A DNA stretch of 64,000 bases from contig OZ024740.1 of the NCBI GenBank assembly GCA_964016885.1, positions 49,042,001 through 49,106,000 of the forward strand, in the 5' to 3' direction. Of this stretch, positions 5,033-59,981 are shown in pieces. The notes beneath the pieces are model-generated. The model searched no databases. It had not been told where the DNA came from and worked only from the letters and a program-made list of their open reading frames with translations. Both the position numbers and the translations under genes were made by a program. The DNA comes from Eledone cirrhosa (lineage: Eukaryota). Numbering within the stretch: position 1 is the first letter of the stretch; every line of letters starts with the position of its first letter.

Positions 5033-5059
5033 TTATTGCATGGAATTGGTATTTTCCCT

Positions 5060-11518: not shown

Positions 11519-11617
11519 ACAAATATTTATCCCGTAGTCAATCATCAAGGGAACCATATCGAACATATATGTGGGGAGTCACAGGGGAACAAGAATGGAG
11601 TCCAGAAATGACCACAG
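11519..11617 (+). CDS. Host gene internal exon (HKYLSRSQSSREPYRTYMWGVTGEQEWSPEMTT)
   Basis: tttttcag acceptor, G/gtaaaa donor, phase 1 to 1. Confidence 0.78.
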
Positions 11618-11758: not shown

Positions 11759-11814
11759 ATTATGAAGATGATGATGATGGCAATTTATATGGAGATTTTT
11801 ATTTTATTTCATAG
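11759..11814 (+). CDS. Host gene terminal coding exon (DYEDDDDGNLYGDFYFIS*)
   Basis: cttttcag acceptor, phase 1 in frame with the previous exon, ends in TAG. Confidence 0.72.
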
Positions 11815-15917: not shown

Positions 15918-17165
15918 ATAATAATAATGAAATTATTGTGTACAGTGCTCAGGTGCACTACAACTTATCAAAGGTGCATGTATAGTACATAGAATAATGT
16001 ATAAATGTCAAGGAAGTGAATAGTGTATGAGTCATGATATACATGTGTGCGTGTGTATGGAGGGGGAATATTAGGCGTAGTGTTGGCGAATCTCAGGAAG
16101 CATGGAGGTTTTAAAGGATGCAGTGTCTCGACAGCTAACAATTGTTGCAGGGAGTTTGTTCCATGCTTCACCAACTCTGAGCGTGAAAAAATGTTTCTGA
16201 AAGTCATGGGAGCTGCGCTGTTTTGTGACTTTGTGGGCATGCCCACGTGTGTTAGACACATGGAAATCAAAAAGGTACTCAGGGTTGTTGTTGGCAAGAT
16301 GGTTAATAATTTTGTGGGTATTTACCAAGTCAGTTGCCAGACGTCGGAGCTTCTATGTATCCATGCCCAGGGAAGTAAGGCGTTCAGAGTATGGTAGATG
16401 CCTGATGGAGGGTATTCGCTTGGTTGCACGTCTCTGAACAGTTTCTAGGCGGTCAATGTTCTGAGCAACATAGGGATTCCAGACTGGTGATGCAAATTCT
16501 AAGTGTGGCTGCACCATAGCTATGTACAGCCTTAAATAGATAGGTGGAGAGCGGCTGACAAAGGTCTTGCTGAGTGATGCTAAGACACCCTCGGCTTTCT
16601 TGACAATTTTAGAGACGTGCTTTGTCCAACGCAAATCGCTGCTGACAGTAATGCCCAGGTCACGTTCACAAGAAGACTTCTTGATATTAATGTTGTGGGG
16701 GGTGTATGTGGACGCTGGGTTTTTACTCCCAAAATGCATGGTGGTACACTTTTCCACAGCCAACTTGAGTTGCCAGTCTGTGATCCATTGTTGCATTGTG
16801 TCCAGGTCAGATTGCAGGAAAGATCTATAGTGTTCAGGATCTGTCCTTTTTATCTCAAGGTACAGCTTGATATCATCTGTGTACTTTAGTACTGTGGCAT
16901 TCTTTAAGTTGGCATCTATGTCATTAATATATGCCACAAACAAAAGGGGGCCAAGAACAGATCCCTGTGGTACACCAGATGACATCTCATATGGTGAGGA
17001 ATGCTGTCCTAGAACTGTGACTACCTCTCTTCGACTGAGAATGAAGGACTTCAACCAGTTGAAAAGATCATCCTTTACACCCATTGCAGAGAGTTTTGCC
17101 ATAAGTCTTTTGTGTGGCACAGAATTGAAAGCTTTAGCAAAGTCAAGGTAAACAATATGGTCTCT
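15918..17165 (-). mobile_element. CR1/L2-clade LINE, 5'-truncated RT pseudogene
   Basis: ORF 16353-17243: YLDFAKAF, VPQGSVLGPLLF, YTDD, ERDLG, RPHLE-like motif; the CR1-type C-terminus FFTLRVGEAWNKLP lies in another frame (frameshift). Confidence 0.9.
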
Positions 17166-18084
17166 TACATGTGTTTCAATGCTGTTATGCATATATATAT
17201 ATATATATAAATAATTGTTTCTACATTTGGCACAAGGCCACAATATATATATGTAAATAATGTGTGTCTGTGTGTGGTTTTATGACTATGGCTAAGTTAT
17301 TGTTGCAATCACTGCACAGAACCTCTTCTATCATTGTCTCTGTTTGATTTAGACTTTGTGAAGGAATTTGAGTTGACGGAAATTATGTGAAAGCCCACTA
17401 GATACACTATATCTATAACTCAAAGAGTCAGTTTTTTCCTATACAGTGTGGTAATGATTTTGTATGATGGTTCTTATAAGGGTTCAAGGGTACAATATAA
17501 TTTACTATTTACCTCTCTGTCTATTTTTCCACACATCTATCTATATCTATAAAGCTATTCTGATTACTAGAACAATTTCAATAAATCTGTTCAATATACT
17601 CATTAAGTTTTCATTTAATGATTTTTAGTTTTTGCAATATTAGTTCCAAGCTGCATCAGATTTTGGTTACATCTACTTTTAGGATATTCTATTTCACAGA
17701 ATATCCTGTAATATTTAGCAGAAAATGTCTGAGTTTGTTAATTGAAATGTTTGTATTATCTTTACTACGGGACAGATTGTTGTGAAAATTAGCAGTATTA
17801 GAGCAAAGATTTTAATTTTTAATATGGTGCAGCCATTGTGCTGTTTTATACTTCTTATGAATGTCTTACCAATAGAGTTTCATGAGGTACAGGATGTTAA
17901 GAGTTAATATAAATATGTAAATTGGTATTGTCTTCTTAACTCTGACATTGTAAATGTGAACTAGTATATTATCTTGTTTGTATGATGTTAATCATTTGTT
18001 CAATAAATAATTACAAGATCTTCTAATCACTGGGCATGCACTACAAAAATCATTGGTCAGAATAAGTTAAAGAAAAAGAATAAT

Positions 18085-30461: not shown

Positions 30462-30543
30462 ATATGTATATGTATATATATATAAATGTAAGTATGTATG
30501 TCTACGTACATACATATATGTATACAGACGTACAGTAGCATGC

Positions 30544-30584
<41 letters not shown>

Positions 30585-30735
30585 TATACACATATGCATA
30601 CAGGTACACATACATATATGCACGCATCAGTTTAGCCGACGTTTATTATAACGCCGCTTTGTTCGTTTGTTTGTCAACAAACCGAACAGCCTGAATTTAT
30701 GCCATATGGTGTTAAGGCAACCACGTCACCTTTTT

Positions 30736-30822
30736 GTTCAACACTGACACAGGAACGATGTACTAGTTTCAAGCTTGTTAGCTATCATCAGCACCGTTTA
30801 CCCATCTGCCAGATAGTTGAAC
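30736..30822 (-). ncRNA. Type I hammerhead ribozyme, copy 1 (core 30754-30798)
   Basis: gttcaac.tat.ctggc.ag.atggg.ta.aacggtg CTGATGA t agct aaca agct t GAA ACTAGT A catcgtt.cctgt.gtcag.t.gttgaac. Confidence 0.85.
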
Positions 30823-30871
30823 GTTCGAAAGTATATACTTTCCTTATGAAAATTAACGGCTGAGCAGCCTA

Positions 30872-30879
30872 ATTTGCAT
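30872..30879 (-). promoter_or_regulatory. Octamer ATGCAAAT upstream of the hammerhead (also 54816-54823 on +; mutated in copy 2)
   Basis: Exact octamer ~50 bp 5' of extended stem I; function is inferred. Confidence 0.4.
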
Positions 30880-31035
30880 ATTGAGTGAGTTAAATCGGTC
30901 AGGCATACCGAAAACGATAAGTTGAAAAAAATGCAAACGAAATTTCATTTCTCACTCTTAGTATGGCACTTACTTAAATGTAAGTATGTATGTCTACGTA
31001 CATACATATATGTATACAGACGTACAGTAGCATGC

Positions 31036-31084
<49 letters not shown>

Positions 31085-31235
31085 TATACACATATACATA
31101 CAGGTACACATACATATATGCACGCATCAGTTTAGCCGACATTTATTATAACGCCGCTTTGTTCGTTTGTTTGTCAACAAACCGAACAGCCTGAATTTAT
31201 GCCATACGGTGTTAAGGCAACCACGTCACCTTTTT

Positions 31236-31322
31236 GTTCAACACTGACACAGGAACGATGTACTAGTTTCAAGCTTGTTAGCTATCATCAGCACCGTATA
31301 CCCATCTGCCAGATAGTTGAAC
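31236..31322 (-). ncRNA. Type I hammerhead ribozyme, copy 2
   Basis: Same as copy 1 with one stem I mismatch. Confidence 0.82.
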
Positions 31323-31501
31323 GTTCGAAAGTATATACTTTCCTTATGAAAATTAACGGCTGAGCAGCCTAATTTTCATATTGAGTGAGTTAAATCGGTC
31401 AGGCATACCGAAAACGATAAGTTGAAAAAAATGAAAACGAAATTTCATTTCTCACTCTTAGTATGGCACTTACTTAAATGTAAGTATGTATGTCTACGTA
31501 C

Positions 31502-34500
31502 CATCATCATCATCATCATTATCATTTTACGTCCGCTTTTCCCTGCTTGCAAGGGTGGGACGGGTCTTATTCAGCACAGCATCTCTCCACTCGTCACGGT
31601 CCCTCGTCATCTCCACCGTCAGCTTCAATGATCTGAGGTCTGTTCTCACCACCTCCGCCCATGTTTTTCGTGGTCTACCTCTACCACGTCTTCCTTCAAC
31701 TGGCATTTCCTGGCACTTCTTCACCCATCGGTCATCCTCCATGCGCATCACATGTCCATACCACCTCAGTCTCCTCTCCCGTACACTACATTCCATCCCT
31801 CTCAGACACAGTTTCTCTCTCAACACATTTATGCTGGGTCGTTCACGCACATTTACACTGCACATCCAACGGAGCATGCTTGCCTCATTTCTCTCCAGCC
31901 GTCGCATATCTTCTGCGGTAGCTGCCCATGTCTCACTACCATGCAGCATCGCGCTCCTCACACAGGCATCATACAACCGGCCTTTCGTACGCAGGGAGAA
32001 ACCCTTCTTCGTCAACAGAGGAAGCAGCTCCCTAAACTTCTTCCAACCCGTCCTTATTCTAGATACTATGGCCTCGGAACACCCTCCTCCCATGCTAATC
32101 TGATCTCCTAGGTACCGGAAGCTATCCACCACTTCTATAGCGCCCTCTCGCATTTGAAAAATGTGTCTATCAGTGCGACTTCTACTGTCTAATTTCCCTG
32201 TACATCTACTGCATACATAGTTCTCCCTACCTGTTAGTTTGCCTGCTATCCCGCTACATCTCTTGTGTACCCAGGACCTACATTGTGTGCATTTTATAGA
32301 ATTTATGCCAGTTCCTTTTCTGCATATCGAACATGGCCATTTCCCTGACGGAATCAGGGTTTTGTCCTCTTTTCTACTCATCAACACTTTTGTCTTAGCT
32401 AGATTTACTCTCAGTCCTCTTGCTTCCAACTGCTGTTTCCATAGCCGGAATTTATTCTCTAGCTCCTCTACTGATTCTGCCATAAGAGCCAGATCGTCAG
32501 CATAGAGAAGTTCCCATGGACAGCCAGTCTTAAACTCCTCTGTTATGGCTTGGAGGACTATAATGAACAAGAGCGGGCTGAGGACCGAACCCTGATGTAC
32601 TCCTACTTGTATCTGGAATTCCTCACTAAACTCCATTCCTACCCTGACTTTACTGAGAGTACCTCTGTACAAAGTTTGCACTGTCCTTACAAGCCATTCC
32701 TCAACACCCAGCTTCCTTAGGGACCACCAGATGACAGATCGGGGTACCCTATCAAAGGCCTTCTCTAGGTCAACAAAGGCTAAGTATAGTGGCTTATTCT
32801 TCTCTAAGAACCTCTCTTGCATTTGTCTCACCAAGAAGAGGGCATCTGTTGTACTCTTCCCAGGCACAAAACCAAACTGCATCTCATCTAGTTTGACCCT
32901 TTCTCTAATTAGTTGTGCTAAAATCCTTTCTGCCACTTTCATAACCTGATCTATCAGTTTTATACCCCTATAATTGCTCCTCTCCAAAGCATCCCCTTTA
33001 CCTTTGTAGCAATTTATGAGAATACTGCTGCACCAGTCTTTGGGTATGACACCACCATATATAGCCTGATTGATTATGCGTGCAACCAGTTTAGTGCCTA
33101 CGTCCCCTGATGCCTTCAGCATCTCAGCAACTATTCCCGATGGTCCGGCCGCCTTACCATTTTTCATTTCCCTAATCGCCTCTTGGACCCTATATTCGTC
33201 AATCTCAATAGCTGGTCCCTCTGTCGGATCTACCAAGGGTAATTTCTCTCTCTCCCATTCGTTCTCCACATTCATCAGTCTCTCATAATGACATTTCCAG
33301 GCCTCCTTTTTCTGGTCATTCGTGACACTAAGTACACCGGCATCATCCCGGACACATTTATCACCAACAACATCCTGATTTGCATTGACACACTGCCTTG
33401 CAATGTGGAACACCGCACGCCTCTGATCTTCCCGTCGCAGAACATTGGCAAACCTCCTACTCTCTGCCTCCCTGCGTGCTAAGTACACCTGACGTCTAGC
33501 TTCTCTCTTAGTGGCTGTATATTCTTCCCTACTCCCACCCTTATTCCAAGCCTTCCATGCTAGTCTTTTGTCTCTAATAGCCTTATCTACACTGCTGTTC
33601 CACCACCAGGTCACTCTCTGTCTGGTTGGAGCTCTGCTCCAGCCACAGGTTTCATCAGTAGCCTTCAGCAAGTTGTCACGTAAGAACTTCCAGTTATTAT
33701 CTATGTCATACGTCTCTAAATCGTCTTCTTTTTCGTCATATACATCTTGAAGGGCTTTCCTAAATTTGAATTTTAGTGAAAGGTCTTTTAGCTTCCAGAC
33801 CTTTCTTCTCCACACCTTCCTATATGTCTCATTCCATCTCTTGCTTACTGAGATATCACTAACAACTAACCTATGCTGTGGGGTACATTCTTCCCCAGGG
33901 TATGCCTTGGTATTAGACACTATCTGCCTGTCCCGCTGCCTAACTAGCAGGAAGTCAATCTGGCTTATGTGCTCACCAGATTTGTAGGTTATTAGGTGAT
34001 TGGCAGGTTTCTGGAAGTTTGTGTTGCAAATAGTCAATGTACTTGCATCACAAAATTCAAGAAGTCTCACTCCTTCTTCATTTCTTGAACCGTAACCGTG
34101 CCCACCATGTACCCCAGTGTAACCATCCTGGAGCTGTCCAACATGACCATTGAAGTCTCCTGCTAGCATAACGATGTCTCCGTCCTCTGTCATTGTGGTT
34201 GTTTGCAAAAGTTGCTCATAAAAGCAGTCTTTCTCATCTTTGCCTAGGCCTGCTTGGGGAGCATAGACCGAGATGATTGTCAGTAGTCTCCTACCTACAA
34301 CTAATCTAAGCTTAATTATTCGATTACTAACTCGAACTACCTCTATTGTCTTATTGATCCATTTCTCAGCCAGGAAAATGCCTACTCCCCCTAACCCATC
34401 ATCCTTACCTACCCAGAATAGCTTATAGCTAAGACGCTTGCCTACGACTAGTCTCGCAGAGGCACCCCTCCATCTCACCTCTTGCACGCAGCACACATCC

Positions 34501-34790
34501 ACCTGCCTTCTCTCCAGCATCTCCGCTATTTCAGCAGACCTACCTCTGAGAGTGCCAACATTAAGTGTTGCAACTCTGAGATGCGACGTCTTCATATTTT
34601 CTATGCTGTTTTGTTGCTGTGCTGATAAGCTTTTTGGCGTTGATACACTGGTTGGATGCCCTTCCTAACACCAGCGCCACTTTACAGCATGGACTGGGTG
34701 CTTTTATTTGTGCCACCAGCACTAGAGAGGATGTCTTACTAGACTCAAGGGCCCTCTCTACCCCTCCATTTTACAGCATCGTCATTATTA
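31502..34790 (-). mobile_element. RTE family C LINE, apparently near full-length
   Basis: Single long ORF, short structured 5' UTR, (GAT)n tail immediately after the stop codon. Confidence 0.93.
31527..34595 (-). CDS. Intact 1022-aa APE endonuclease / reverse transcriptase with an internal PHD-like finger
   Basis: TLNV, CVQE, GDFN, IDF, QH (APE); [25 protein letters not shown] (RT); RWYGHV and GRPRKTW (RTE C-terminus). Confidence 0.95.
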   Translation of the reverse strand: MKTSHLRVATLNVGTLRGRSAEIAEMLERRQVDVCCVQEVRWRGASARLVVGKRLSYKLFWVGKDDGLGGVGIFLAEKWINKTIEVVRVSNRIIKLRLVVGRRLLTIISVYAPQAGLGKDEKDCFYEQLLQTTTMTEDGDIVMLAGDFNGHVGQLQDGYTGVHGGHGYGSRNEEGVRLLEFCDASTLTICNTNFQKPANHLITYKSGEHISQIDFLLVRQRDRQIVSNTKAYPGEECTPQHRLVVSDISVSKRWNETYRKVWRRKVWKLKDLSLKFKFRKALQDVYDEKEDDLETYDIDNNWKFLRDNLLKATDETCGWSRAPTRQRVTWWWNSSVDKAIRDKRLAWKAWNKGGSREEYTATKREARRQVYLARREAESRRFANVLRREDQRRAVFHIARQCVNANQDVVGDKCVRDDAGVLSVTNDQKKEAWKCHYERLMNVENEWEREKLPLVDPTEGPAIEIDEYRVQEAIREMKNGKAAGPSGIVAEMLKASGDVGTKLVARIINQAIYGGVIPKDWCSSILINCYKGKGDALERSNYRGIKLIDQVMKVAERILAQLIRERVKLDEMQFGFVPGKSTTDALFLVRQMQERFLEKNKPLYLAFVDLEKAFDRVPRSVIWWSLRKLGVEEWLVRTVQTLYRGTLSKVRVGMEFSEEFQIQVGVHQGSVLSPLLFIIVLQAITEEFKTGCPWELLYADDLALMAESVEELENKFRLWKQQLEARGLRVNLAKTKVLMSRKEDKTLIPSGKWPCSICRKGTGINSIKCTQCRSWVHKRCSGIAGKLTGRENYVCSRCTGKLDSRSRTDRHIFQMREGAIEVVDSFRYLGDQISMGGGCSEAIVSRIRTGWKKFRELLPLLTKKGFSLRTKGRLYDACVRSAMLHGSETWAATAEDMRRLERNEASMLRWMCSVNVRERPSINVLREKLCLRGMECSVRERRLRWYGHVMRMEDDRWVKKCQEMPVEGRRGRGRPRKTWAEVVRTDLRSLKLTVEMTRDRDEWRDAVLNKTRPTLASREKRT

Positions 34791-35044
34791 AAAAAAAAAA
34801 AAAAAAAAAAAAAACTTATTGACACGACTCACACACTAATACTCATGCATACAAACCACAACCACACATACCAACACTCATTCATGCATACAATCACGCA
34901 CACCACTCACAAACATATATATATATACATATATTACCGACAGTACTGATACAAAATCAAAATCAAAGTCAAAATCGTCAAAATCACTATCATGTCAACT
35001 GTTGACCTTTCCCAGTCCAGTTCGGCTTGTATATAATAACAATA

Positions 35045-35340
35045 ACAATAATAATTGTTTGTTTACGCTGGTAATGGCGGTGGTGGATGGTGTCAGTGTG
35101 GTGGTGGTGGATGGTCAGTGATGGTGGTGGCAGTTGTTGGTGCTGTAGTTGTTATTGTAGTTGTTACTGTTGTTGTTGTCCTTCATTTCACTGCTGCTGT
35201 TGCTGCAGACAATGGTGTTGATGCTGTTATTGCTGTCGCATATATACAAATACATACACACACATTCAACACAGACGATGGTGTTGTTGCTGTTGTTGTT
35301 GTTGGTGTTGCTGCTGTTGTTGTTGTAGTTGTTGCTGTGT
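35045..35340. repeat. Degenerate (GTT/GGT/GCT)n trinucleotide tract
   Basis: Seen directly. Confidence 0.85.
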
Positions 35341-35669
35341 TGAAATCTGGTCGCATCCACTGAGATATACATATACACACACATACACATATGTATATAC
35401 ACATACATACATCAAAAGAGAGTCAGCAGTATGTCAACAGGGGACAGGACAGCGATCTTAGAGTAATGTGGTGATGGTGGGGAGCGAGTGTAGGCGTTAT
35501 TGTTATTGTGGTGACAGGGGGGGGGGGTCAGTGAGATGTTACAAGTTCATAGATCACTTCTCTCTTTTCCTCTCTCTTCAAAATTTTGAATTTATGGCCT
35601 TTTGCAATGACGGACAAGTATATATAATATATATATATGAAGCAAAGAAAAGAAAATTTTCACTGATAT

Positions 35670-35980
35670 GAAAGATTTCCTGGTAGAAGTTCAGGTGTAT
35701 TCAGTAATTGGTATCCAGTTTCGGGGTATCCAATTAGAAAGTCCAACGAATCTTTAAGAGGGGTCCACGCAACCATTGATATATATATCTATATATGTAA
35801 AATGCAAGCAGAAATGACAACGAAAGATTTCCTGGTAGAAGTTCAGGTGTATTCAGTGTTGGTATCCAGTGTTAGGATATCCAATTAGAAAATCCAACGA
35901 ATTTTGAGAGGGGTCCACGCAAGCATATATATAGATATATATATGTATATATGCAAAATGCAAGCAGAAATAACAACATA
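35670..35980. repeat. ~152-bp tandem duplication of unknown origin
   Basis: gaaagatttcctggtagaagttcaggtgtattcag at ~35670 and ~35822. Confidence 0.85.
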
Positions 35981-36067
35981 TACTAATGAACATACATTAA
36001 ACACAGAAGGACTGTAAATGATAATATATGTACATACATATATATATACAGACGTACAGTAGCATGC

Positions 36068-36116
<49 letters not shown>

Positions 36117-36285
36117 TATACACATATGCATACAGGTACACATATATATATGCACGCATCAGTTTAGCCGACGTTTATTATAACGCAGCTTTGTTCGTTT
36201 GTTTGTCAACAAACCGAACAGCCTGAATTTATGCCATACGGTGTTAAGGCAACCACGTCACCTTTTTGTTCAACACTGACACAGG

Positions 36286-36330
36286 AACGATGTACTAGTT
36301 TCAAGCTTGTTAGCTATCATCAGCACCGTT
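36286..36330 (-). ncRNA. Type I hammerhead ribozyme, copy 3
   Basis: Intact core and 7-bp proximal stem I; distal 5' strand truncated at the inversion point. Confidence 0.8.
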
Positions 36331-36351
36331 TACCTATATGGCAGATGGGTA

Positions 36352-36396
36352 AACGGTGCTGATGATAGCTAACAAGCTTGAAACTAGTACATCGTT
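36352..36396 (+). ncRNA. Type I hammerhead ribozyme, copy 4
   Basis: aacggtg CTGATGA tagctaacaagctt GAAA ctag TA catcgtt. Confidence 0.83.
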
Positions 36397-36565
36397 CTTG
36401 TGTCAGTGTTGAACAAAAAGGTGACGTGGTTGCCTTAACACCGTATGGCATAAATTCAGGCTGTTCGGTTTGTTGACAAACAAACGAACAAAGCGGCGTT
36501 ATAATAAACGTCGGCTAAACTGATGCGTGCATATATGTATGTGTACCTGTATGCATATGTGTATA

Positions 36566-36610
<45 letters not shown>

Positions 36611-36724
36611 GCATGCTACTGTACGTCTGTATACATATATGTATGTACGTAGACATACATACTCACATTTAAGTAAGTGCCATACTAAGAGTGAGAAATG
36701 AAATTTCGTTTTCATTTTTTTCAA

Positions 36725-36800
<76 letters not shown>

Positions 36801-39692: not shown

Positions 39693-42273
39693 TAACTTTG
39701 AATAACTTTGAAATGTTTTGGCCAGTATCGGCCTAGGCCATGTCTAACTTAATAGCACCACCTGGCGAAGTCTTTCAATTCAGGATTTGGGCATCATGGT
39801 CCATTCGAGAAGAGAATTACTGTTTGCGGAGACATATCCGGGTGTGGGTGGTTTGTCCGGGATTACTTGGAGGAATTTGTCCAAAGACTTCTTGAATTTT
39901 GTGTGGTCAGTTTCTGTTTTGACGTGTCCTGGTGTGATGTTGAAGAGAGCAGGGCCAATTGAGATGAAATAATTGTGCCATATTGTTGTTATGAGTTACG
40001 ATTTAGATTTTTGTTTGGGACGGATAGCACGGGGCCCAAGCCTTGGGTGTATTTTGAAGGTGATGCCAACATCATTTGGGCAGTGCCGATGAAACATTTT
40101 CCACATCATATAAGATAATATAACGCTCACGGCGACGTTGGAGTGAGTAAAGTTTCAGCTTTTCTAGTCGACCCCAGTAGTCAAGGTCTGACATGCCATC
40201 TATCTTTTTCGTGATTGCCCTTTGGGGAGCTTCAAGTTTCATGATACTTTGTTTCGTGTGGGGAGACCACAGTGGACAACAGTATTCAAGGTGTGGTCGG
40301 GCAAAAGTGGAGAAGAGAAGGATAATGGTGTGGGAATCTCTCGACTGGAAGGTTCTGAGGATCCAGGAACACATTCTGCGGGCCATGTCAACTTTGCTGC
40401 TTATATGCGTGGCCCAGCTTATGTTGCTGTCCACGGTTACTCCCAAGTCTCTGATGTTGTTAGATGCCATGAGAGTTTCACCGGAGGGAAGGGAGTACGA
40501 GAGTTTCAGAGCATCCTCTTTTCCAAAGTGGATCAGTTCGAATTTGTCTTCGTTCAGTAACATGTTATTCTTTTCCGCCCATTGGGTAACAGCCAGTAGG
40601 TCTGACTGAAGGCTTATCCGGTTATCCACGCCATTGATGACCTTTTGGAGCTTGGAATCATCAGCGAAAATTCTAATGTTGCTGTGTTTGATGATGTCAG
40701 TGATGTCATTAATATAGATGATGAAGAGAAGTGGGCCCAACACACTGCCTTGTGGGACCCCACTACTGACTTTGGCTGGGCTGGATTTGACTCCTTCGAC
40801 TACAACATGTTGGGTTCTGTTTGACAGGAAGCTCTTGATCCACTGTAGCAGCTTTCCAGTGACACCAATATTAGACAGCTTTCTCAGTAGAATGTTGTGA
40901 TCAACCCTGTCAAAGGCCTTGTTGAAATCAAGGTAGATAACATCAGTGTTGGAATCCTCTTCCAAGGCTCTAAAAATGTCATCAAAGTGATGCAGTAGCT
41001 GCGTCAGGCAATCCCTTCCATTACGGAATCCATGCTGGTTGGAGTTCAGCATATTGTTACTCTCAAGGAAGTGAGTCATTCGCGATCTCACCACTCTCTC
41101 AAATACCTTAATGATATGAGAGGTGAGTGAGATTGGACGGTAATTCACGGCAAGGGATTTGTTTCCTTTTTTGAAAACTGGGACAACAGACTGGGATAGA
41201 AGGTTTTCTGGCACATATCCAGCATCCAGTGAGTTCCGCCACAGATTGGCAAGAGGAGATGCAAGTTGGTGTTGACACGCCTTCAAGACACAAGCAGGGA
41301 ACCTATCGGGACCTACTGCTGAATTATGCTTGATTTCCTTTATTGCCGCTAAGACATCAGGGGCGCCAAACGTTATGTCCGATAAGATGTAAAGGTGGAG
41401 TAACATCGCCGATACAGCCCAGATCGGCCATATCAGGATTGCTGAAAACAGAGCAGTATTGTTTCTGCAGTATCTCACCCATGGTTTTAACATTGTCTTG
41501 AAGAGTGCCATTTTCATCAATTAGAGGGTCAACAGTAGAGCCAGTGATTTTGTGTTTTTTTGCAAATGAAAAGAACACTTTGGGATTGAGTTTGATCTTC
41601 TCAATGGCCCAGGCCTCTTCAGCTCTTCTCTGATTGTTGATGATAGACATCATATTGTTTTGGAGGTTATGTTTTTTAATCTCTAGTGATGAAATGGCAG
41701 TCAAGTTGATGTGTTGCTGCTGATAGTATTTCAGCTTGTTGATTTTTTTGTTCTCTTAACTTTCCTGATGAGCGTTTTTCTATTTCTAGGGATTCTGCTC
41801 TTAGATTTGTTTATAGTTCTTAATGGGGTGTGTTTTGCACATATGTTTGTAACAGTGTCCACAAATGTCTGCCAGGACTTTTTGATGTTAGTGGGTGTGT
41901 GAGTGTGCGTGAAGGACCAGCCGACATGTGCAAGATCATGACTGATCGCTTCCCAGTTTACATTGTGGAAATCCATAGCATCAAACGGATGGACAGGAGA
42001 GATGACATTGGGTTTGTATATTGGACGGTGGAATCTCAGATCACAGAGAACCATGTCATGATCAGATAGTAGAGTTTTCTCCACTGCAATATTGTGGATA
42101 GTGTCAGTGTGATTGCTGAAAATTAAGTCTAGGACGTTTTTGTGGCACCTCGTTGGTTCGAGCACCAGTTGGGACAGGAAGAAATCATCCGTGAAGTCAA
42201 GAAGCGATTCCACTGCTTCCCTGTCAGAGGTTGAGGCAGAAGAACCTGGTGGCAGGCTGTTTGTGGACCAGTC
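39693..42273 (-). mobile_element. CR1/L2-clade LINE, 5'-truncated and frameshifted (partial APE plus RT)
   Basis: LDLIF/SDH (APE), YRPISL, QHGFR, VPQGSVLGPLLF, FADD, RPHLEY; TA flanks. Confidence 0.92.
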
Positions 42274-43063: not shown

Positions 43064-46000
43064 ATCATCATCATCATCATCATCAACGTTTAACGTCCGT
43101 GTTCCACGCTTGCATGGGTTTGGACGGGGGTAGTCCCACTTGAGGCAAGAGTGATTGTCTTGCTCGCATAGGACTGTTGGATGCCCTTCCTAACACCAAC
43201 CACATTTACAGTGTGGGTCTGGGAGGTTTTTACCGTGTTGCCTACACGGCCACATTACAGCGTGGACTGTGTGTTTTTTTGTCGTGACACCTACACGATC
43301 TCATTTGTTTCGGCCTCGATGGCGCGGCACCAACATAACTTTACATAGAACGGGGTGGTGTGGATGGGGTGGGGGTGGTGGGACGGGGTGTATTTTGTTA
43401 GAGATGCCTACTGGCTGGAGTAGGTTTTACTATATATTTAGGTAAGGCGGGTCTTCTCTGTTACTGAGTACCGCCAAAGGTCTCGGTCCAGTGACATTGT
43501 CTTGGAGAGGTGTAAGTGTGTGATGTCGGAGTTTATCAGCTCGTCCCAGGTTTTTCTAGGTCTGCCTATTCCGTGACTACCGTCTATCTTTATTGCCCTG
43601 CACTTTGTTATACAGCTATCGACTTTCATGCGCATCACGTGTCCATACCAACGTAGCCTTCTCTCGAGTAAACAACATCTGATCCCTCTTATCTCTAATT
43701 TTTTCCTTAGTTCGTTTATGCTTTGCCGTTCACGTATATTACTGTTACACATCCAGCGGAGCAAGCAAGCTTCGTTCCTCTCTAGTCTGCGTATATCCTC
43801 TGCACACAATGCCCAGGTCTCACTGCCATGCAGCATTGCTGTTCGTATGCAGGCATCGTACAACCTGCCTTTCATTTTTAGTGAGAACCCTTTAGCAGCT
43901 AATAGTGGTATAAGCTCTCTGAACTTTTTCCAACCAGTTCTGACTCTAGCTACAGTACTTTCAGAGCACCCTCCCCCACTGCTGATTTTATCGCCCAGGT
44001 AACGGAAGCTGTCCACTATTTCTATAGAACCCTCTGCGCAATTGAAAGAGCTAGTAGTTTGTGGGCACTTGCTGCTACTTATTGCACCAGAGCACCGGCC
44101 ACATGTAAAATCTATGTTCTTAGTTAGCTTACCTGTGATCCCACTACATCTTTTATGCACCCATACTTTGCATTTAGGACATAAAATGGAGTTTCTACCT
44201 ACGCCTTTCCTACACACCGAGCACGACCATTTCCCAGAAGGGACCGCCGCCTTGTTTTCTTTCCTACAAACTAGTACTTTGGTCTTAGCCAGGTTAATTT
44301 TAAGTCCTTTTGACTCTAGGCCGTGCTTCCATGTTTGGAATTTCTTCTCTAGCTCGGCCATTGATTCCGCTATGAGTGTCAGGTCGTCTGCGTATAGGAG
44401 TTCCCATGGGCAGCCTGTCTTGAACTCCTCTGTTATAGCCTGAAGGGCAATAATAAATAGTAGTGGGCTGAGAACAGAGCCCTGATGGACGCCAACTTTT
44501 ACGCTAAACTCTTCACTATATTCGTTGTTAATTCTAACCTTGCTGACTGTTTCTTTATACATGGCTTGTATAGCCCTCACAAGCCATTCGTCAACGCCTA
44601 GTTTTCTAAGAGCCCACCAGATAATGGAGCGGGGGACTCTGTCGAAGGCTTTCTCCAAGTCGACAAAAGCTAAGTAGAGGGGTTTACCTTTAGCTAGGTA
44701 CTTCTCCTGTAGTTGTCGTACTATGAAAAGAGCGTCTGTGGTACTTTTGCCTGACACAAACCTGAACTGCATTTCATCTAGGTCAATTCTCTCTCTGATT
44801 AGTTGCGCTATTACTTTTTCCGTGACCTTCATGACCTGGTCGATTAATTTAATGCCTCTATAGTTACTCCTATCTAGGGCGTCTCCTTTACCCTTATAAC
44901 AGTTAACGATGATGCTGCTATGCCAGTCCTTCGGAACAACCCCATTCTGTACGACTTGGTTAACTATGCGGGTGACCATGGTGTGTCCCACCGTGCCAGA
45001 TGCCTTCAGCATCTCAGCAACTATTTCCGAAGGCCCAGCCGCCTTACCCGTCTTCATATCCTTGATTGCCTTACTTATTATACTCCCCTCGACTAACACT
45101 GCTGGTCCCTCTATTGGGTCGATATGGGGGAGACTGCCTTTCTCCCAATTATTCTCCTCATTTAGTAGCCTTTCATAGTGACACTTCCAAGCTACCTTCT
45201 TATCAGCGTCGGTGATGGCAAGTGTGCCATCGTCGTTTAGTACACACTTCTCCCCGACAATATCACGGTTTTCCTTGACGCATTGCCTAGCAATCCTGAA
45301 CACCTCACGTTTTTGGTCATCGCGTTGTAGAACATGCTTGAACTTTCTTTCCTCAGCTTCCCTTCTTGCTAAGTACACTTGTCTCCTAGCTTCCCTCCTG
45401 GACACTTGATAGTCCTCTCTATTTCCCCCATCCCGCCATACTTTCCAAGCCTGCTTTTTGGCCTTAATTGACCCCTCCACCTTACTGTTCCACCACCATG
45501 TTACTCTCCTCCTGCCTACAGGCCTGCTCCAGCCACAGACTTCGTCTGTCGCCAACAGCAGGTTTGCTTTCAGAAATTCCCACTCTCCTTCTATATTGTC
45601 CGACTCTAAATGTTCTTCCTTACTGTCGAAAGCATCAAGTAATATGCTTTGAAATTTATTCCTGGCTGTGGGGTCCTTTAGCTTCCATATTTTCCTCCTG
45701 AGGATAGTCCTCTTCTGTTGTCGAGTACGTCTCGTCCTGACTATGAGGTCGCTAATTATCAGTCTATGTTGGGAGGTGCATTCTTCATGGGGGAGGGATT
45801 TAGTGTTTACAACAGACACTCTGTCACGTCTTCTGGTAAGGATATAATCTACCTGGCTTGTGTGTTCCCCGGATCTATAGGTGATCAGGTGATTGTCACG
45901 TTTTTTGAAGTTAGTGTTACAGATAGTTAGGTTATTTGCATCACAGAATTCCAGGATTCTGGAGCCTTCCTCATTTCTAGTACCAAACCCATAGCCTCCA

Positions 46001-47136
46001 TGAATTTCGTCGTAGCCGTCACAATGTTGTCCAACGTGACCATTTAGGTCGCCTGCGATAATTATATAGTCACTGTCGGATATTTGGGAGGTAGTTAGCA
46101 TCAGTGTCTCATAGAATCTGTTTTTTATAGTGCCGGGCAGTCCGGATTGGGGTGCGTACGCAGATATTACTGTCACCGTAGTTCTATTGAGGACAAGTCG
46201 TATTTTAATTATTCTGTCGTTCACTCTATTTACGTCTATTATCTTATCTGCCCACTTTTCTGCTACCATGATTCCTACTCCACCCAGCCCATCGTCGTTT
46301 CCCACCCAGAAAAGCTTATAACATCGTTTTTTACCCTCAATGAACCTAGCAGACCCACCCCTCCACCTGGTCTCTTGAATACAACAAACATCGACCTCCT
46401 TACGTTCAAGCATTTCTACAACCTCGTTAGCGCGACCCTTTAGGGTGCCTACATTTATGGTACCAACTCTGAAGTTTTGGATTGCGTTTGGGGGTTGGGG
46501 GCGGTGGGGGGCGGGGGGCGATGGGGTTATGTTAGCCGTCCGCGGTCGAAACAATGAGGAGTGCTCGCATTCTCGTCTAAGAGGTGAATTTGTCTTTATC
46601 TTTGGCATTGTCGCTGAGCGTCCAGATTTTTCTCTCTCTCACCTCCACTCTCCAGGATTCCGCAGTCCATCCATCCATCATATATCGAAAGGCAACCAGG
46701 CAAGCGATAGTATAGGCCTCTGGTTTCTGATTGGTCCGCGTAATAATAATACTGGTGATGCGTGGGGGCTCTGTTTTATGATTGGTCCACGTAATAGCAA
46801 TGGTGGTGCGTGGGGGTGGGAGGGAGGGGTGTTGGGTAGCTAGCAAGAAGGTAATGATTGAATGGGGTCCTTGCATTTAACAAGCGATTAACAAAAATAC
46901 AAAATTTGTTCTGTTAAATACGCCCAAAAACTTTCGTATTTAACAATTAATAGAAACAGAAAATGTAGTTTGTTTTAGCGATAGATTGGCTATTTGGACT
47001 TGATACGAAATATGGATTGTTTTGAAAATACGTTAGAATTAAGATTTGTGGAGGGAGAGAAATGAAATCCGTACATTACGTTACATGAATATCGTGGGTA
47101 GACAGCAAGCAATGAAATTTGGCGAAGTGAATTCCT

Positions 47137-51334: not shown

Positions 51335-53822
51335 TCATCACCGTTTTACGTCCGTTCTTCCACGCTAGCATGGGTTAGACGGGTTGTCCTGTTGTGGGCA
51401 GTGTCTGGTCGGCTGACCATGCCTTGCTCATACAGGAACTGATCTGGCTTGATTTCTACAGCTGGATGCCCTTCCTAACACCAACCTCATTTACAGTGAG
51501 TGCTGGGTGCTTTTTCGTGGCGCCTACACGTCCACTTTACAGTGTGGGCTGGGTGCTTTTTTGCCGTGGCACCTCCACGACCACCTTGCGGTGGGGGGGG
51601 GGGCATATTGTTTATATGCTTCAGCATGTACCCATGGGAGGTCGAGTACCCTGTATTACTGCGTGACGCCAGAAGTCACGGTCGTGTGTCATTGACTTTG
51701 AGAGGTGTAGTTGGGTAAGGTCGGCTTTTATCACCTCATCCCAAGTCATCTTGGGTCTCCCCACTCCGCGGTTTCCATCAACTTCTAGTGCTCTGCACCT
51801 TTTTATGCAGCTGTCATCCTTCATACGCATCACATGTCCATACCAGCGTAACCGCCTCTCCTGCACGCAGCATTTGATTCCTCTTATGCTCAGTCTCTCT
51901 CTCAATTCATTTATGCTTTGTCGTTCACGTATATTACTGTTACACATCCATCGGAGCATGCAGGCTTCGTTTCTCTCTAATCTACGTAAGTCTTCCACCT
52001 TCAGCGCCCAGGTCTCACTACCATGCAACATCGCTGTTCGGATACACGCATCATACAGTCTGCCTTTCATTCTGAGGGAGAAGCCTTTTGCAGCTAGCAG
52101 TGGTAGTAGTTCCCTAAACTTCTTCCATCCCGTTCTTACCCTAGTTATTGTACTTTCTGAGCACCCACCTCCGTTGCTAATTCGGTCACCTAGGTAGCAG
52201 AAGCTGTCTACTGTTTCTACAGGGCCCTCCCAGAGATTGGTGGTACTTGTTTCCTGTGGCTGTTTGCTTGCTGTTTCAGCACAGCTGCTGCATGTGAATC
52301 CTACATTCTTAATTAAGCTTCCTGAGATCCCGCTACATCTCTTGTGTACCCATTGTTTGCATTTGGGGCAAAGAATGGAGTTCCTACCTACACCTTTCCT
52401 ACATACTGAGCAAGGCCATTTCCCTGAGGGGATCTGGGTTCTGTTTTCTCGTCTACTTATAAGGACCTTAGTCTTTGTCATGTTGACTTTGAGGCCCTTT
52501 CTCTCTAGTCCCTGCTTCCAGGTTTGGAATTTATTCTCTAGTTCTACCATAGATTCAGCTATGAGTGCGAGGTCATCAGCATACAGGAGTTCCCATGGGC
52601 ATCCGGTCTTAAACTCCTCCGTTATTGCCTGCAGGACTATGATGAACAGGAGAGGGCTAAGAACAGAGCCCTGGTGGACCCCAACCTGTACGCTAAATTC
52701 CTCGCTATACTCATTGCCAATCCTAACTTTGCTGACTGCTCCCCTATACATGGCTTGTACCGCTTTCACAAGCCATTCATCTACTCCTAGTTTTCTAAGA
52801 GCCCACCAGATTACTGCACGTGGAACTCTGTCAAAGGCTTTCTCAAGGTCGACAAATGCCAAGTAGAGTGGCTTACTTTTAGCTAGGTACTTTTCCTGTA
52901 ATTGCCTCACAAGGAAGAGCGCATCAGTGGTGCCTTTCCCTGGTACAAACCCAAATTGCATCTCGTCTATATTCACCCGGTCCCTAATCAGCTGTGCTAT
53001 AACTCTTTCTGTTACTTTCATGACCTGGTCCATCAACTTTATACCTCTATAGTTTCCTCTATCTAGTGCATCGCCTTTACCTTTGTAGCAGTTGACAATG
53101 ATGCTACTGCACCAATCTTTTGGTATGGCCCCCTCTAGTATTACCTGGTTAACGATACGTGTGGTTATAGTGTGACCTACAGACCCAGATGCCTTCAGCA
53201 TCTCGGCAGCTATACCCGATGGACCGGTTGCCTTCCCTATCTTCATATCTCTGATTGCCTTACTTACTACGCTGCCGCTGACTTGTACTGCTGGTCCCTG
53301 TATAGGGTCTACGTGGGGTAGGGTCTCTTCTTCCCATGCATTCTCCTCATTTAGTAATCTATCATAATGACTCTTCCATGCATCTTTCTTCTCAGCACTT
53401 GTGAGGGCAAGCTCACCTTTATCATTCCGGATACACTTCTCTCCAATGACATCACAACTATCTCTGACACACTGCCTCGCAATCTTGAATACCTCCTGTT
53501 TCTGGTCCTCACGTTGTAAAACATGCTTGAATTTTCTATCCTCTGCTTCCCTCCTAGCTAAGTATACTTGTCGCCTAGCTTCCCTCTTGGTCTCTATGTA
53601 ATGTACCCTGCTCCCCCCGTTCTTCCATTCTTTCCATGCCTGTCTCTTGGCCTTGACTGCTTCATCTACCTTATTGTTCCACCACCAAGTCACTCTCCTC
53701 CTGCTTGAGGTCTTACTCCAGCCACAAACCTCATCCGTCGCCTCTAGTAAGTTATTTTTTAGGAACTCCCAGTTCTCTTCTACGTTAAATGTCTCTATCT
53801 GTTCTTCTTTACTGTCGTAGGC
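51332..53822 (-). mobile_element. RTE family A, 5'-truncated, open frame
   Basis: ORF 51621-53693. Confidence 0.95.
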
Positions 53823-54589
<767 letters not shown>

Positions 54590-54655
54590 TCATCATCATC
54601 ATCATCATCGTTTAACGTCCGTGTTCCATGCTTGCATGGGTTTGGACGGAGGGTT
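54590..54655 (-). mobile_element. RTE family B-like extreme 3' tail only
   Basis: (CAT)n then cgtttaacgtccgtgttccatgcttgcatgggtttggacg. Confidence 0.8.
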
Positions 54656-54656
54656 T

Positions 54657-55099
54657 TATGCATGCTACTGTACGTCTGTATACATATATGTATGTACGTA
54701 TACATACATACTTACATTTAAGTAAGTGCCATACTAAGAGTGAGAAATGAAATTTCGTTTTCATTTTTTTCAACTTATCGTTTTCGGTATGCCTGACCGA
54801 TTTAACTCACTCAATATGCAAATTAGGCTGCTCAGCCGTTAATTTTCATAAGGAAAGTATATACTTTCGAACGTTCAACTATCTGGCAGATGGGTAAACG
54901 GTGCTGATGATAGCTAACAAGCTTGAAACTAGTACATTGTTCCTGTGTCAGTGTTGAACAAAAAGGTGACGTGGTTGCCTTAACACCGTATGGCATAAAT
55001 TCAGGCTGTTCGGTTTGTTGACAAACAAACGAACAAAGCTGCGTTATAATAAACGTCGGCTAAACTGATGCGTGCATATATGTATGTGTACCTGTGTGC

Positions 55100-55163
<64 letters not shown>

Positions 55164-55224
55164 GCATGCTACTGTACGTCTGTATACATATATGTATGTA
55201 TGTATACATACATACTTACATTTA
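54657..55224 (+). repeat. ~1.1 units of the ~500-bp hammerhead repeat (terminal ~65-bp direct redundancy)
   Basis: catgctactgtacgtc at 54661 and 55165; reverse complement of the 30484-31501 units. Confidence 0.9.
54873..54959 (+). ncRNA. Type I hammerhead ribozyme, copy 5 (core CTGATGA 54904-54910, GAAA 54925-54928, predicted cleavage after A54934)
   Basis: Full extended stem I; the C>T variant keeps a G-U pair. Confidence 0.85.
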
Positions 55225-55830: not shown

Positions 55831-58309
55831 TGTAAATGCCATTTTTCTTATCTCTCTCCAGCCTATCGGTTCATTCATTCATATTGTTCTAAATAATCTT
55901 CTCTTTGCTATCGGTCCATTCATTCATATATCCGTATATTGCCCAAAATCCAATCTTTGCTCTCTCTCAATGCTATTCTATAATTCTGTCTGGTTGTTTC
56001 TAAATAATCTTCTTGTATTTTTTTATTTTTTATTTTTTTTAACTCCTCCACTTTGTTCCAAATAATCTTCTCTTTGCTTTTCTAAAATAACAATCTTGTT
56101 TGTTTAATTTTGGCCGAAAAAATGCTAGGATTGATAAAATGGCCTCTTATCCTTTATCCACCATCCCCACTATAGCGTGTTACGTGCTGGCTAGCTCACC
56201 CTTTCAATTACTCCCTTCTCTCTCCAAATATAAATAAACCTGTAGCGAGGTACGAATCTCAGAATCTCAAAAATGGTGAGACCTCGTCCCTGCGAAGTAT
56301 AATGTAAATGCCATTTTTCTTATCTCTCTCCAGCCTATCGGTTCATTCATTCATATTGTTCTAAATAATCTTCTCTTTGCTATCGGTCCATTCATTCATA
56401 TACCCGTATATCGCCCAAAATCCAATCTTTGCTCTCTCTCAATGCTATTCTATAATTCTGTCTGGTTGTTTCTAAATAATCTTCTTGTATTTTTAACTAC
56501 CCCACTTTGCTAACTACCCCATACCCCTCCCTCCCGCCCCCATTCTCCACCTTATTATTTGGACCAATCACAAGTCAACAGCCTATGCTATCACTTCTGG
56601 CTGCTTTTCGATATGATGGATAGACTAAGGAATTTCTGGAGAGTCTGAAGAATCTGGACACTCGACGACAATGCCAAAGAAAACGACAAATTCACCTCAT
56701 GCTGCCGGACGAAAGGGCAAGTCCCCCTCTTTGTTTCGGCCGCGGATGGCCAACATAACCCTAACCCCATCCCCTCACCCATCCCTGCGCCCCATCCTCC
56801 AAACACAATCCAAAACTTCAGAGTTGGTACCATAAATGTAGGCACCTTAAAAGGCCGCTCTAACGAGGTTGTAGAAATGCTTGAACGTAAGGAGGTTGAT
56901 GTTTGCTGTATCCAAGAGACCAGGTGGAGGGGCGGGTCTGCTAGATTCATTGTGGGTAAAAAACGTTGCTATAAGCTCTTCTGGGTGGGAAATGACAATG
57001 GGATAGGTGGGGTAGGAATCATGTTAGCAGAAAAATGGGTGGATAAGATAATAGATGTAAATAGAGTAAATGACAGAATAATTAAAATAAGACTTGTTCT
57101 AAATAGAACTACTGTGACAGTAATATCGGCCTACGCGCCCCAATCCGGACTGCCTGGCGCTATAAAAGACAGATTCTATGAGACACTGATGCTCACTACC
57201 TCCCAAATAACCGACAGTGACTATATAATTATTGCTGGCGACCTAAATGGCCACGTTGGTCAACATTGTGACGGCTATGACGGAATCCACGGAGGCTATG
57301 GGTTTGGTACTAGAAATGAGGAAGGCTCCAGAATCCTGGAATTCTGTGATGCAAATAACCTAACTATCTGTAACACTAACTTCAAAAAACGAGACAATCA
57401 CCTACAGATCGGGGGAACATACCAGCCAGGTAGATTATATCCTTACCAGAAGACGTGACAGAGTGTCTGTTGTAAACACTAAATCACTCCCCCATCAAGA
57501 ATGCACCTCCCAACATAGACTGCTAATTAGCGACCTCATAGTCAGGACGAGACGTACTAGACAACAGAAGAGGACTATCCTCAGGAGAAAAATATGGAAG
57601 CTAAAGGACCGCACAGCCAGAAATAAATTTCAAAACATGTTACTTCATGCTTTCGACAGTAAGGAAGAGCAATTAGAGTCAGATAATATAGAGGAACAGT
57701 GGGAATTCCTGAAAGCAAACCTGCTGACGTCGGCAGACGAAGGTAGGAGGAGAGTAACATGGTGGTGGAACAGTAAGGTGGAGGAGTCAATTAAGGCCAA
57801 AAAGCAGGCTTGGAAAGTATGGCGAGATGGGGGAAGTAGAGAAGACTATCAAGTGGCCAGGAGGGAAGCTAGGAGACAAGTGTACTTCGCAAGAAGGGAA
57901 GCAGAGGAAAGAAAGTTCAAGCATGTTCTACAACGTGAGGACCAAAAACGTGAGGTGTTCAGGATTGCTAGGCAATGTGTCAAGGAAAACCGTGATATTG
58001 TCGGGGAGAAGTGTGTACTTAATGATGATGGCGTACTTGCCATCACTGACGCTGATAAGAAGGTTGCTTGGAAGTGTCACTACGAAAGGCTTCTAAATGA
58101 GGAGAATAAATGGGAGAAAGACAGTCTCCCCCACATCGACCCAATAGAGGGACCGGCAGTGTTAGTCGAAGGTAGTATATTAAGTAAGGCAATCAAAGAT
58201 ATGAAGATGGGTAAGGCGGCTGGGCCTTTGGAAATAGTTGCTGAGATGCTGAAAGCCTCTGGAACGGTGGGACACACCATGGTCACCCGGATAGTAAACC
58301 AAGTCATAC
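55830..58309 (+). mobile_element. RTE family B 5' half only (5' UTR with a ~190-bp direct repeat, APE, linker; frameshifted and 3'-truncated)
   Basis: ORFs 56877-57458 and 57463-58317 match the N-terminal half of 43438-46608; repeat at ~55830 and ~56302. Confidence 0.88.
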
Positions 58310-59685: not shown

Positions 59686-59981
59686 ATACGATATTAACAA
59701 ATGGAAACTATATTTATAAAACCATATTTATTTCATTATACATATTTCAAGGACACCAAGTTAAATTATGGTGTGCTTACATCAGACAAAATATAATATA
59801 GATCAGTTTTATACAGTAATGGTTGCATTTTTTAAGGGTATGTCAATATTTATTTATAAAACTGATCTATATTATATTTTGTCTGATGAAAGCACACCAT
59901 AATTTAACTTGGTGTCCTTGAAATATGTATAATGAAATAAATATGTTTTATAAATATAGTTTCCATTTGTTAATATCGTAT
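59686..59981. repeat. Inverted repeat with ~128-bp arms and a 41-bp spacer, each arm carrying a hammerhead motif
   Basis: 59686-59813 is the reverse complement of 59855-59981. Confidence 0.92.
59869..59944 (+). ncRNA. Type I hammerhead of a second, unrelated family
   Basis: atatt.a.tattttgt CTGATGA aag.c.acacca taatttaact tggtgt.c.ctt GAA ATATGTAT A atgaaata.aatat; the mirror arm has CTGATGT. Confidence 0.75.

Follow-up and report, generated by a model that had tools for sequence, protein, structure and literature searches.

How does a repeat that lacks an open reading frame (ORF) come to lie in tandem and then, head-to-head, in inverted orientation, and which machinery integrated it? We addressed this question at a locus of Eledone cirrhosa, within a stretch of 64,000 nt (GCA_964016885.1, contig OZ024740.1, positions 49,042,001 to 49,106,000; hereafter the window, to which all coordinates refer). 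A first-pass annotation had described there a hammerhead-bearing repeat whose arrangement it took for the insertion signature of Penelope-like elements (PLEs). PLEs have been called "a strong candidate" for spreading animal retrozymes (Cervera and de la Pena 2020, PMC7229834), and a PLE-retrozyme partnership, already proposed in PMC7761336 as well, is argued from co-occurrence and pLTR homology in a 2026 preprint by Li, Clavereau and Pollet (bioRxiv 10.64898/2026.07.22.740005). 

A tandem array is joined head-to-head to an inverted copy

Self-comparison of the window, the dot-plot check proposed for this locus, confirmed a tandem plus inverted layout (Table 1). The repeat unit measures 492-500 bp, is ORF-less and carries a type I hammerhead motif; about 370 bp of it are unique sequence, and the remainder is AT-rich and includes a (TA)n tract. 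By self-comparison and alignment, the tandem copies amount to 2.65 units (30483-31501 plus 36030-36333), a left array of 1,319 nt once the insert is taken out, and an inverted arm of 396 nt (36334-36729) stands head-to-head with them, much as the first-pass annotation had read it (about 2.6 units, then an inverted partial unit). Its account of an array that stops at 31501 and resumes near 36030 also stood: the array breaks off at ...CTACGTAC (31501) and picks up at GTAC (36030), and GTAC occurs twice (31498-31501 and 36030-36033), bracketing an insert of 4,528 bp (31502-36029). The 4.5-kb insertion postulated there thus has the expected size but is composite, a LINE plus about 1.2 kb of unexplained DNA.

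In both arms the ribozyme sense points outward from the centre, with the 3' ends toward the flanks, so the join is head-to-head. The palindrome that had been estimated at about 620 bp spans 619 bp today (36030-36648, centre 36341); 295 of 299 aligned bases are identical between its arms, which are separated by a 15-nt spacer and differ further by one 4-nt gap in the (TA)n tract. Comparisons of the unit with the inverted arm gave BLAST E-values of 1e-147 to 1e-167, which means that this likeness is not due to chance. Arm D is continuous through the site of the 4.5-kb insert in the left array and thereby provides an empty site: the palindrome was shortened from about 780 to 619 bp by the later LINE insertion in its long arm. 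The range first assigned to the structure, 36028-36729, holds the palindrome, but 81 nt of the right arm lie outside its present extent.

Elsewhere in the window, (TA)n tracts flank a further, separate inverted repeat (59686-59981), near-perfect (91%) and about 297 bp long; one of its arms contains a CTGATGA that does not satisfy the hammerhead descriptor used below.

Table 1. Features of the window, with strand where assigned.
Feature	Coordinates	Strand	Remarks
Unit copy A, 492 bp	30483-30974	-	Left end is the element 3' end and abuts a (TA)n tract
Unit copy B, 500 bp	30975-31474	-	
Copy C, initial 27 bp, left of the insert	31475-31501	-	Terminates in the duplicated GTAC
Copy C, remainder (left palindrome arm)	36030-36333	-	Begins with the second GTAC
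Copy D, inverted, 5'-truncated	36334-36671	+	Runs to the 3' end common to both loci
58-nt extension beyond the shared 3' end	36672-36729	+	Candidate PLE "tail"; final 2-3 nt ambiguous against the (TA)n flank
15-nt spacer	36334-36348	+	Quasi-palindrome of the unit, right-arm (sense) version
Native 15-nt quasi-palindrome	30802-30816	.	Copy A; 6/7 pairs; also 31302-31316 and 54879-54893
Second locus	54657-55224	+	One full unit and a partial copy of 64 nt, uninverted; 3' end shared with the first locus, in (TA)n
LINE 3' stub, ~49 nt plus tail	54591-54657	-	Head-to-head with the second locus, 1-nt overlap
Hammerhead motif (type I), copy D	36352-36396	+	Predicted cut 36389/36390, after GUA
Hammerhead motif, copy C	36286-36330	-	
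Hammerhead motif, copy B	31254-31298	-	Outer stem I pair lost
Hammerhead motif, copy A	30754-30798	-	
Hammerhead motif, second locus	54897-54941		
Later insert, 4,528 bp	31502-36029	-	Full-length LINE with (GAT)n tail plus ~1.2 kb of upstream DNA
Intact single ORF, 1,022 aa from ATG	31527-34595	-	AP endonuclease, reverse transcriptase, PHD finger
Unexplained part of the insert	34790-36029	.	A25 run, simple repeats, 151-bp dimer (35670-35977)
PLE relic, separate from the unit	5617-7091	-	Inside 283-bp inverted terminal repeats
Relic RT-thumb/linker/GIY-YIG, frameshifted	6141-6837	-	GIY-YIG 6e-6
Relic inverted terminal repeats	5617-5899, 6809-7091		Each with a degenerate PLE-type minimal hammerhead
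Candidate host exons	7287-7396, 11519-11617, 11759-11814	+	AG/GT borders; the last ends in a stop codon

The arms overlap on a quasi-palindrome of the unit

The palindrome centre lies 18 nt from each CUGAUGA core (minus strand 36323, plus strand 36359), close to the distance of about 20 bp first given for the inversion point; however, there is no single such point, since the arms share a 15-nt in-register overlap on the unit's own quasi-palindrome, just 5' of the ribozyme. The spacer has one mismatch to the right-arm version of this sequence and four to the left-arm version. Of 1,000 centres in the unit, 48 have at least 6/7 pairs; with the (TA)n left aside the count is 7 of 879, and the self-duplex energy of the junction 15-mer (-8.2 kcal/mol) ranks 50th among 439 non-microsatellite windows. 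The surroundings are rich in other palindromes, and we regard the quasi-palindrome signal at the junction as real but moderate. A perfect 16-bp palindrome with central TATATA (30827-30842) lies 10 nt away on the 5' side of the junction site; it could be a two-way promoter or the fossil of an older inversion junction.

The orientation of the spacer argues against a tight fold-back. On the plus strand, a tight hairpin predicts the left-arm spacer, with four mismatches against one, and is disfavored; on the minus strand, a 396-nt arm would be unable to template 1,319 nt. The energy of the fold-back hairpin is merely -0.5 kcal/mol. Two routes fit the junction, namely two antisense cDNAs annealed at the quasi-palindrome, or a multimeric cDNA that primed itself on an earlier unit.

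A second locus ends at the same unit position

The repeat is known from two loci, both inside the window. The second, which bears on the proposed survey of other loci for the same pattern, is a partial tandem of 1.13 units flanked by (TA)n tracts, but it is not inverted. Its 3' end coincides in unit position with the left end of the first locus and lies at the loop of a small stem-loop within A/C-rich sequence, some 270 nt away from the ribozyme cut. Arm D overruns this shared end by 58 nt, a one-sided extension seen in a single instance. We rejected the idea that monomer ends coincide with the ribozyme cut site, as neither locus terminates there.

Eighteen alignment columns vary in all; 12 of them concern the first locus, each private to one of its copies, and the two repeats of the second locus have one variant in common. 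At unit position 181, copy C departs from D and agrees with the second locus; in a simulation that assumed 18 changes, recurrent mutation produced such a shared variant with a chance of 0.11-0.29, depending on CpG weighting. Copy D has none of the three private changes of B in the span common to both, and it lacks the tail-span change of A; its divergence from the tandem copies matches the divergence among them, which makes the inversion about as old as the array. The private columns and the variant common to both repeats of the second locus would fit a single monomer template copied by rolling circle, and a linear multimer equally well; the variant that C has in common with the second locus speaks against a single template.

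A hammerhead motif recurs in the repeat copies

The motif is present in all five unit copies that span its site (5/5). By inspection, it combines CUGAUGA and GAAA with three stems, namely stem I of 7 bp, stem II of 4 bp above a U.U mismatch, and stem III, a 6-nt palindrome (ACUAGU); the cut site is GUA. A descriptor composed after the motif had been seen matched five times in the window, always in this repeat, against 0.025 matches per shuffled window (40 shuffles). Rfam returned no match at gathering score in the 64 kb; the best relevant one, Hammerhead_HH9, scored 16.9-18.6 bits (cut-off 52) with an aligned core, and matches to miRNA families were discarded as (TA)n noise.

The active fold of the monomer is predicted to be unfavourable (-7.4 or -2.0 against -9.5 kcal/mol), while the isolated dimeric active fold (-20.8 kcal/mol) comes near the best predicted dimer (-21.7 kcal/mol). 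In full context, the active dimeric fold of A and B is predicted 10.8 kcal/mol above the minimum free energy; these two copies are adjacent, and B lacks only the outermost stem I pair. A short palindromic helix III with cleavage as a dimer is the metazoan norm (Cervera and de la Pena 2014, PMC4209133), and both the U.U base of helix II and a helix III of this kind also occur in the axolotl HHR_Amex2, a better cleaver as dimer (PMC7229834). In the 2026 preprint, no more than one of nine predicted dimers showed cleavage in vitro (bioRxiv 10.64898/2026.07.22.740005). Self-cleavage of the present motif is plausible.

Two further observations concern this region. Stem I and the core (30784-30800) resemble a LINE 3' end in 15-17 of 16-18 nt, a chance-level similarity (E 0.2-0.8). 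On the minus strand, a donor-like GTAAGT (30968-30973) lies 2 nt past the unit's 3' end and a CAG (31306-31308) directly precedes an extended stem I; the pair recalls the Drosophila Penelope intron, which ends at helix I (PMC4209133), maybe by chance.

The unit resembles PLE insertions and non-LTR retrozymes

PLE insertions have been described as partial tandems with an inverted 5'-truncated copy, a tail of 30-40 bp and a (TA)n bias (Craig et al. 2021, PMC8557442). For Penelope copies, an inverted pLTR with a 15-bp overlap on the direct one and a 31-bp tail on one arm have been reported, and head-to-head junctions are often palindromic, which was explained as self-priming (Arkhipova et al. 2013, PMC3846280). 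A purified PLE protein cut and extended both strands, mainly on uncut RNA; cDNA began at two internal sites, located in an AC-rich stem-loop, that delimit the tail, and ribozyme cleavage was not required (Frangieh et al. 2024, PMC11167929). The present locus is like EN+ PLE insertions in its partial tandem, its head-to-head inverted and 5'-truncated copy, its palindrome with a 15-bp junction overlap, its one-sided extension, the hammerhead within the repeat and a (TA)n target without discernible target duplication. It differs in the length of the extension (58 nt against the published 30-40), in the lack of an RT/GIY-YIG ORF, and in its hammerhead, which is of the canonical metazoan kind (4-bp helix II, helix III present) and not of the minimal PLE type with an extra base before G10.1-C11.1. 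None of the 15 open frames of at least 60 aa that overlap the unit matched Pfam and its six-frame translation is interrupted by frequent stops; it has neither the telomerase-like RT nor the GIY-YIG ORF of an autonomous EN+ PLE. No autonomous PLE sharing sequence with the unit was found in the 64-kb window. The exact unit motif had no match in bacterial and archaeal genome contigs, a result that is uninformative for an animal repeat.

With non-LTR retrozymes, which lack protein-coding capacity as well as LTR, PBS and PPT, the unit shares an ORF-less tandem organization, one type I hammerhead per unit, low G+C, loci from monomer to trimer (PMC7229834; bioRxiv 10.64898/2026.07.22.740005) and a highly self-paired predicted circle (69% of bases paired, z -8.9 against 25 shuffles, partly owing to the (TA)n tract). 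Its 500 bp exceed the 150-450 bp of one account (PMC7229834) and fall within the 51-972 bp of the 2026 preprint. The published descriptions of non-LTR retrozymes examined, in the parts covered, mention no inverted head-to-head arm, fixed 3' end or tail, and our literature search, which took in part of the supplementary data, found neither an inverted retrozyme insertion nor a cephalopod retrozyme.

Non-autonomous Chlamys PLEs (such as MRC1) and pLTR-framed, trans-mobilised sequences are ORF-less or carry cargo, like the unit (PMC8557442, PMC3846280), and likewise form multicopy head-to-tail insertions, or have two direct and one inverted terminal repeat. In contrast, their 3' sequence or pLTRs are common to an autonomous family, and no such family was found for the unit. 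In Schistosoma, paired minimal hammerheads on opposite strands, 100-700 bp apart, derive from truncated inverted PLE ends (PMC4209133); two opposite-strand cores occur here too, but 36 nt apart and in a tandem ORF-less unit.

A separate PLE relic lies in the window

Outside the array, the window holds the relic of a 5'-truncated, frameshifted PLE with C-terminal endonuclease. Its arms are identical at 273 of 283 positions, and their two outer ends stop at one and the same base. In a Pfam scan of the 109 frames of at least 60 aa outside LINEs, the only GIY-YIG domain was that of the relic (6141-6443). Among named entries, the relic is closest to one from Octopus bimaculoides (63% identity). Hydra PLEs that bear an HHR and target (TA)n are recorded for Octopus (PMC8557442 supplement), and recently active Penelope families have been reported (PMC13282606). 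Two motifs of the unit had no relevant match in the PMC8557442 supplement. Kinship between the unit and the relic was not detectable: 63 of 500 shuffles reached the score of 32 between the unit and the relic repeat, which is chance level. Altogether, the relic shows that PLE machinery of the hammerhead-bearing type has acted in this genome, though it is not evidence that this machinery moved the unit. Two RT frames (16356-17276 and 40075-41517) considered as further PLE remains were rejected as LINE-type fragments, 38% identical.

Three of the ten differences between the relic arms fall in the 7-nt hammerhead core, and the damage differs from arm to arm (P ~0.001, post hoc), possibly through selection against cleavage inside a host intron. 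The phases of the candidate host exons near the relic suggest one missing exon. A crude scan, which missed one exon visible by eye, gave no candidate host exon flanking the palindrome between 18847 and 46643.

A later LINE insertion splits the array

The protein encoded in the insert matched RVT_1 (8e-30), Exo_endo_phos (1e-6) and PHD (2e-5) in Pfam. It is 64% identical to an ORF at 43441-46635 of the window, and the best of its 340 database matches, an unnamed one, reaches 54% identity. The element has a single APE-RT ORF and a short tandem-repeat tail, and we take it to be of RTE type from general features of that clade, the name coming from neither a database nor a tree. Its target duplication of 4 bp (6 bp for a related insertion at 2959-3372) is below the 7-15 bp given for RTEs (PMC6007223). 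The sequence upstream of the LINE (34790-36029) matched nothing further within the window and no Pfam family above the cut-off; these 1.2 kb may be a long 5' UTR, a transduced flank or a second event.

The inserted LINE and its neighbours have further features of their own. Its 5' region (34653-34712) contains a motif of 55-60 nt that is about 82% identical to a 3' UTR motif of the other LINEs in the window; it had no Rfam match, and is possibly a ribozyme-like or promoter element. From 28000 to 64000 the window is densely packed with nested LINEs of three or more subfamilies, their (GAT)n tails adjoining (TA)n tracts, with long open ORFs at 43438-46638, 51621-53820 and 60358-62356, and a direct duplication of 186 bp (55832-56017 and 56304-56489, 99%) lies upstream of a LINE. 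At the other end of the window, a satellite of 43-bp period (1-5033, about 116 period-lengths) is broken by a 414-bp LINE stub, the insertion at 2959-3372 with the 6-bp duplication.

Alternative origins of the inverted arm

The abundance of LINEs raises the question of whether their machinery integrated the repeat RNA, with the inversion produced by twin priming on a transcript of about 3.7 or more units. Twin priming produces head-to-head inversions, LINEs of that type fill 28-64 kb, some with intact ORFs, and they insert at the same (TA)n targets: DNA of at least 80% A+T adjoins 14 of 15 selected LINE tails, so that (TA)n targeting does not discriminate between PLE and LINE. The second locus moreover stands head-to-head with a LINE 3' stub, with a 1-nt overlap. 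This fusion may go back to a single chimeric event, or the stub may have nested later where the (TA)n tract belonging to the unit ends. Yet the unit has no (GAT)n tail and no tail or 3' UTR in common with the LINEs, whereas RTE-dependent SINEs share the 3' end of a LINE (PMC6007223). Its unique part gave nothing better than E 0.2 against the LINEs of the window (chance-level matches of 16-18 nt), and the sole likeness to a LINE 3' end, over 16-17 nt, sits in the ribozyme instead of at the insertion ends. We consider an origin through RTE-type LINE machinery unlikely.

A plain tandem array might also have been inverted later, by a replication template switch at the quasi-palindrome, which led from copy C onto the other strand of B and back to the flank via TA microhomology. 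This would account equally well for the orientation of the spacer and the lengths of the arms, would place both the junction and the outer end on microhomologies, and agrees with the uninverted second locus. What makes it improbable is copy D, which lacks the private changes of B and the tail-span change of A and whose divergence, equal to that among the tandem copies, dates the inversion to about the time of the array; the polarity and the one-sided extension also fit the PLE pattern.

A variant of the LINE origin would have the retrozyme integrated by, or with, RTE-type LINE machinery instead of a PLE, one cut (TA)n target taking two RNAs, one per strand, and we hold this to be quite improbable. 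In this reading, two retrozyme RNAs would have entered at the first locus, giving the palindrome, and a retrozyme and a LINE RNA at the second, giving the chimera; the intact LINE in the array might in addition promote transcription through B and A and restore monomers. If true, this reading would overturn the current hypothesis that PLEs are the partners of retrozymes, at least for one animal family of these.

Two separate PLE-type insertions, the short arm landing at the 5' end of an existing array, are very unlikely. The PLE endonuclease is able to nick its own repeat (PMC11167929), and at unit position 181 copy C, unlike D, has the state of the second locus; however, an in-register junction on the quasi-palindrome would then be a coincidence (about 1-5% of centres), and the shared variant is 11-29% likely by recurrent mutation. 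Finally, an assembly or fold-back read artefact is the least credible origin: palindromes beside long (TA)n tracts are error-prone and assembly problems are reported for such structures (PMC8557442), but the right arm is uninterrupted where the left array holds the 4.5-kb insert, the arms differ by four substitutions and a 4-nt gap, and the spacer has a substitution of its own, whereas folding back the molecule as it now stands would carry the insert into both arms and make them identical, which on the assembled sequence is an argument and not proof.

Integration by PLE machinery is the probable origin

We therefore favor as probable that the unit is a non-LTR retrozyme, that PLE machinery integrated it and that two antisense cDNA ends became linked at the quasi-palindrome, a preference grounded in the match between its anatomy and the features reported in PMC3846280, PMC8557442 and PMC11167929. 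The first-pass attribution to PLEs agrees with the published layout, the head-to-head polarity, the 15-nt overlap, the extension, the (TA)n target, the shared 3' end and the presence of the relic, but no autonomous PLE that shares the unit's sequence came to light.

In the proposed course of events, the unit would be a non-autonomous hammerhead repeat that borrows the RT/GIY-YIG protein of a Penelope-like element. The enzyme would nick the (TA)n tract, and cDNA synthesis would start inside a multimeric or circular RNA, always at one site, which may correspond to the 3' end common to both loci. To account for the observed structure, the first cDNA would have run through 2.65 units and their uncut hammerhead sites, after which its 3' end could have paired, antisense to antisense, at the 15-nt quasi-palindrome 5' of the ribozyme. 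Its partner may have been a second cDNA on the other target strand, primed 58 nt further down the RNA at the "tail" start, or the first cDNA itself, at an earlier unit reached via a loop of about 500 nt. Extension and repair would then yield a head-to-head palindrome with 3' ends at both flanks. Its long arm was later split by the insert with the full-length LINE.

Predicted consequences of transcription

RNA of 36031-36648 is predicted to fold into 301 pairs (-524 kcal/mol), with the sense ribozyme fully buried whichever strand is transcribed. The formation of dsRNA, and its suggested use as an ADAR or siRNA substrate, is conditional on transcription across the palindrome, for which minus-strand read-through from neighbouring LINEs is possible. 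On computation only, read-through RNA would meet the antisense arm first and form a 300-bp hairpin that sequesters both palindrome ribozymes, and copies A and B alone would be left in place to act as a dimeric hammerhead releasing a 500-nt monomer. The unit monomer is itself predicted to form a long AT-rich hairpin, and editing or small RNAs at the palindrome thus need the second locus as comparison.

The inserted LINE (tail end at 31502-31527) points on the minus strand into 31501-30761, that is, into copy B and then copy A in ribozyme sense. Read-through past its tail could provide a dimer-competent RNA and, by predicted cleavage, the 500-nt monomer (31260-30761).

Discussion

To a specialist, the layout of this locus is textbook PLE, tidy rather than surprising: that layout, pairs of hammerheads on opposite strands, and tandem insertions of non-autonomous PLEs have all been published before. 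New here are the junction overlap on a quasi-palindrome, the second locus, the 58-nt extension and the separate PLE relic. The orientation of the spacer constrains how PLE inversions form, and a tight snap-back does not fit. If PLE machinery integrated the unit, a survey of further copies would be expected to find a fixed 3' end, a second fixed end 58 nt further on, and inversion junctions on palindromes of the unit. The enzyme that spreads animal retrozymes is stated as open in the publications cited, and insertion scars such as those described here offer a line of evidence that is independent of the existing ones.
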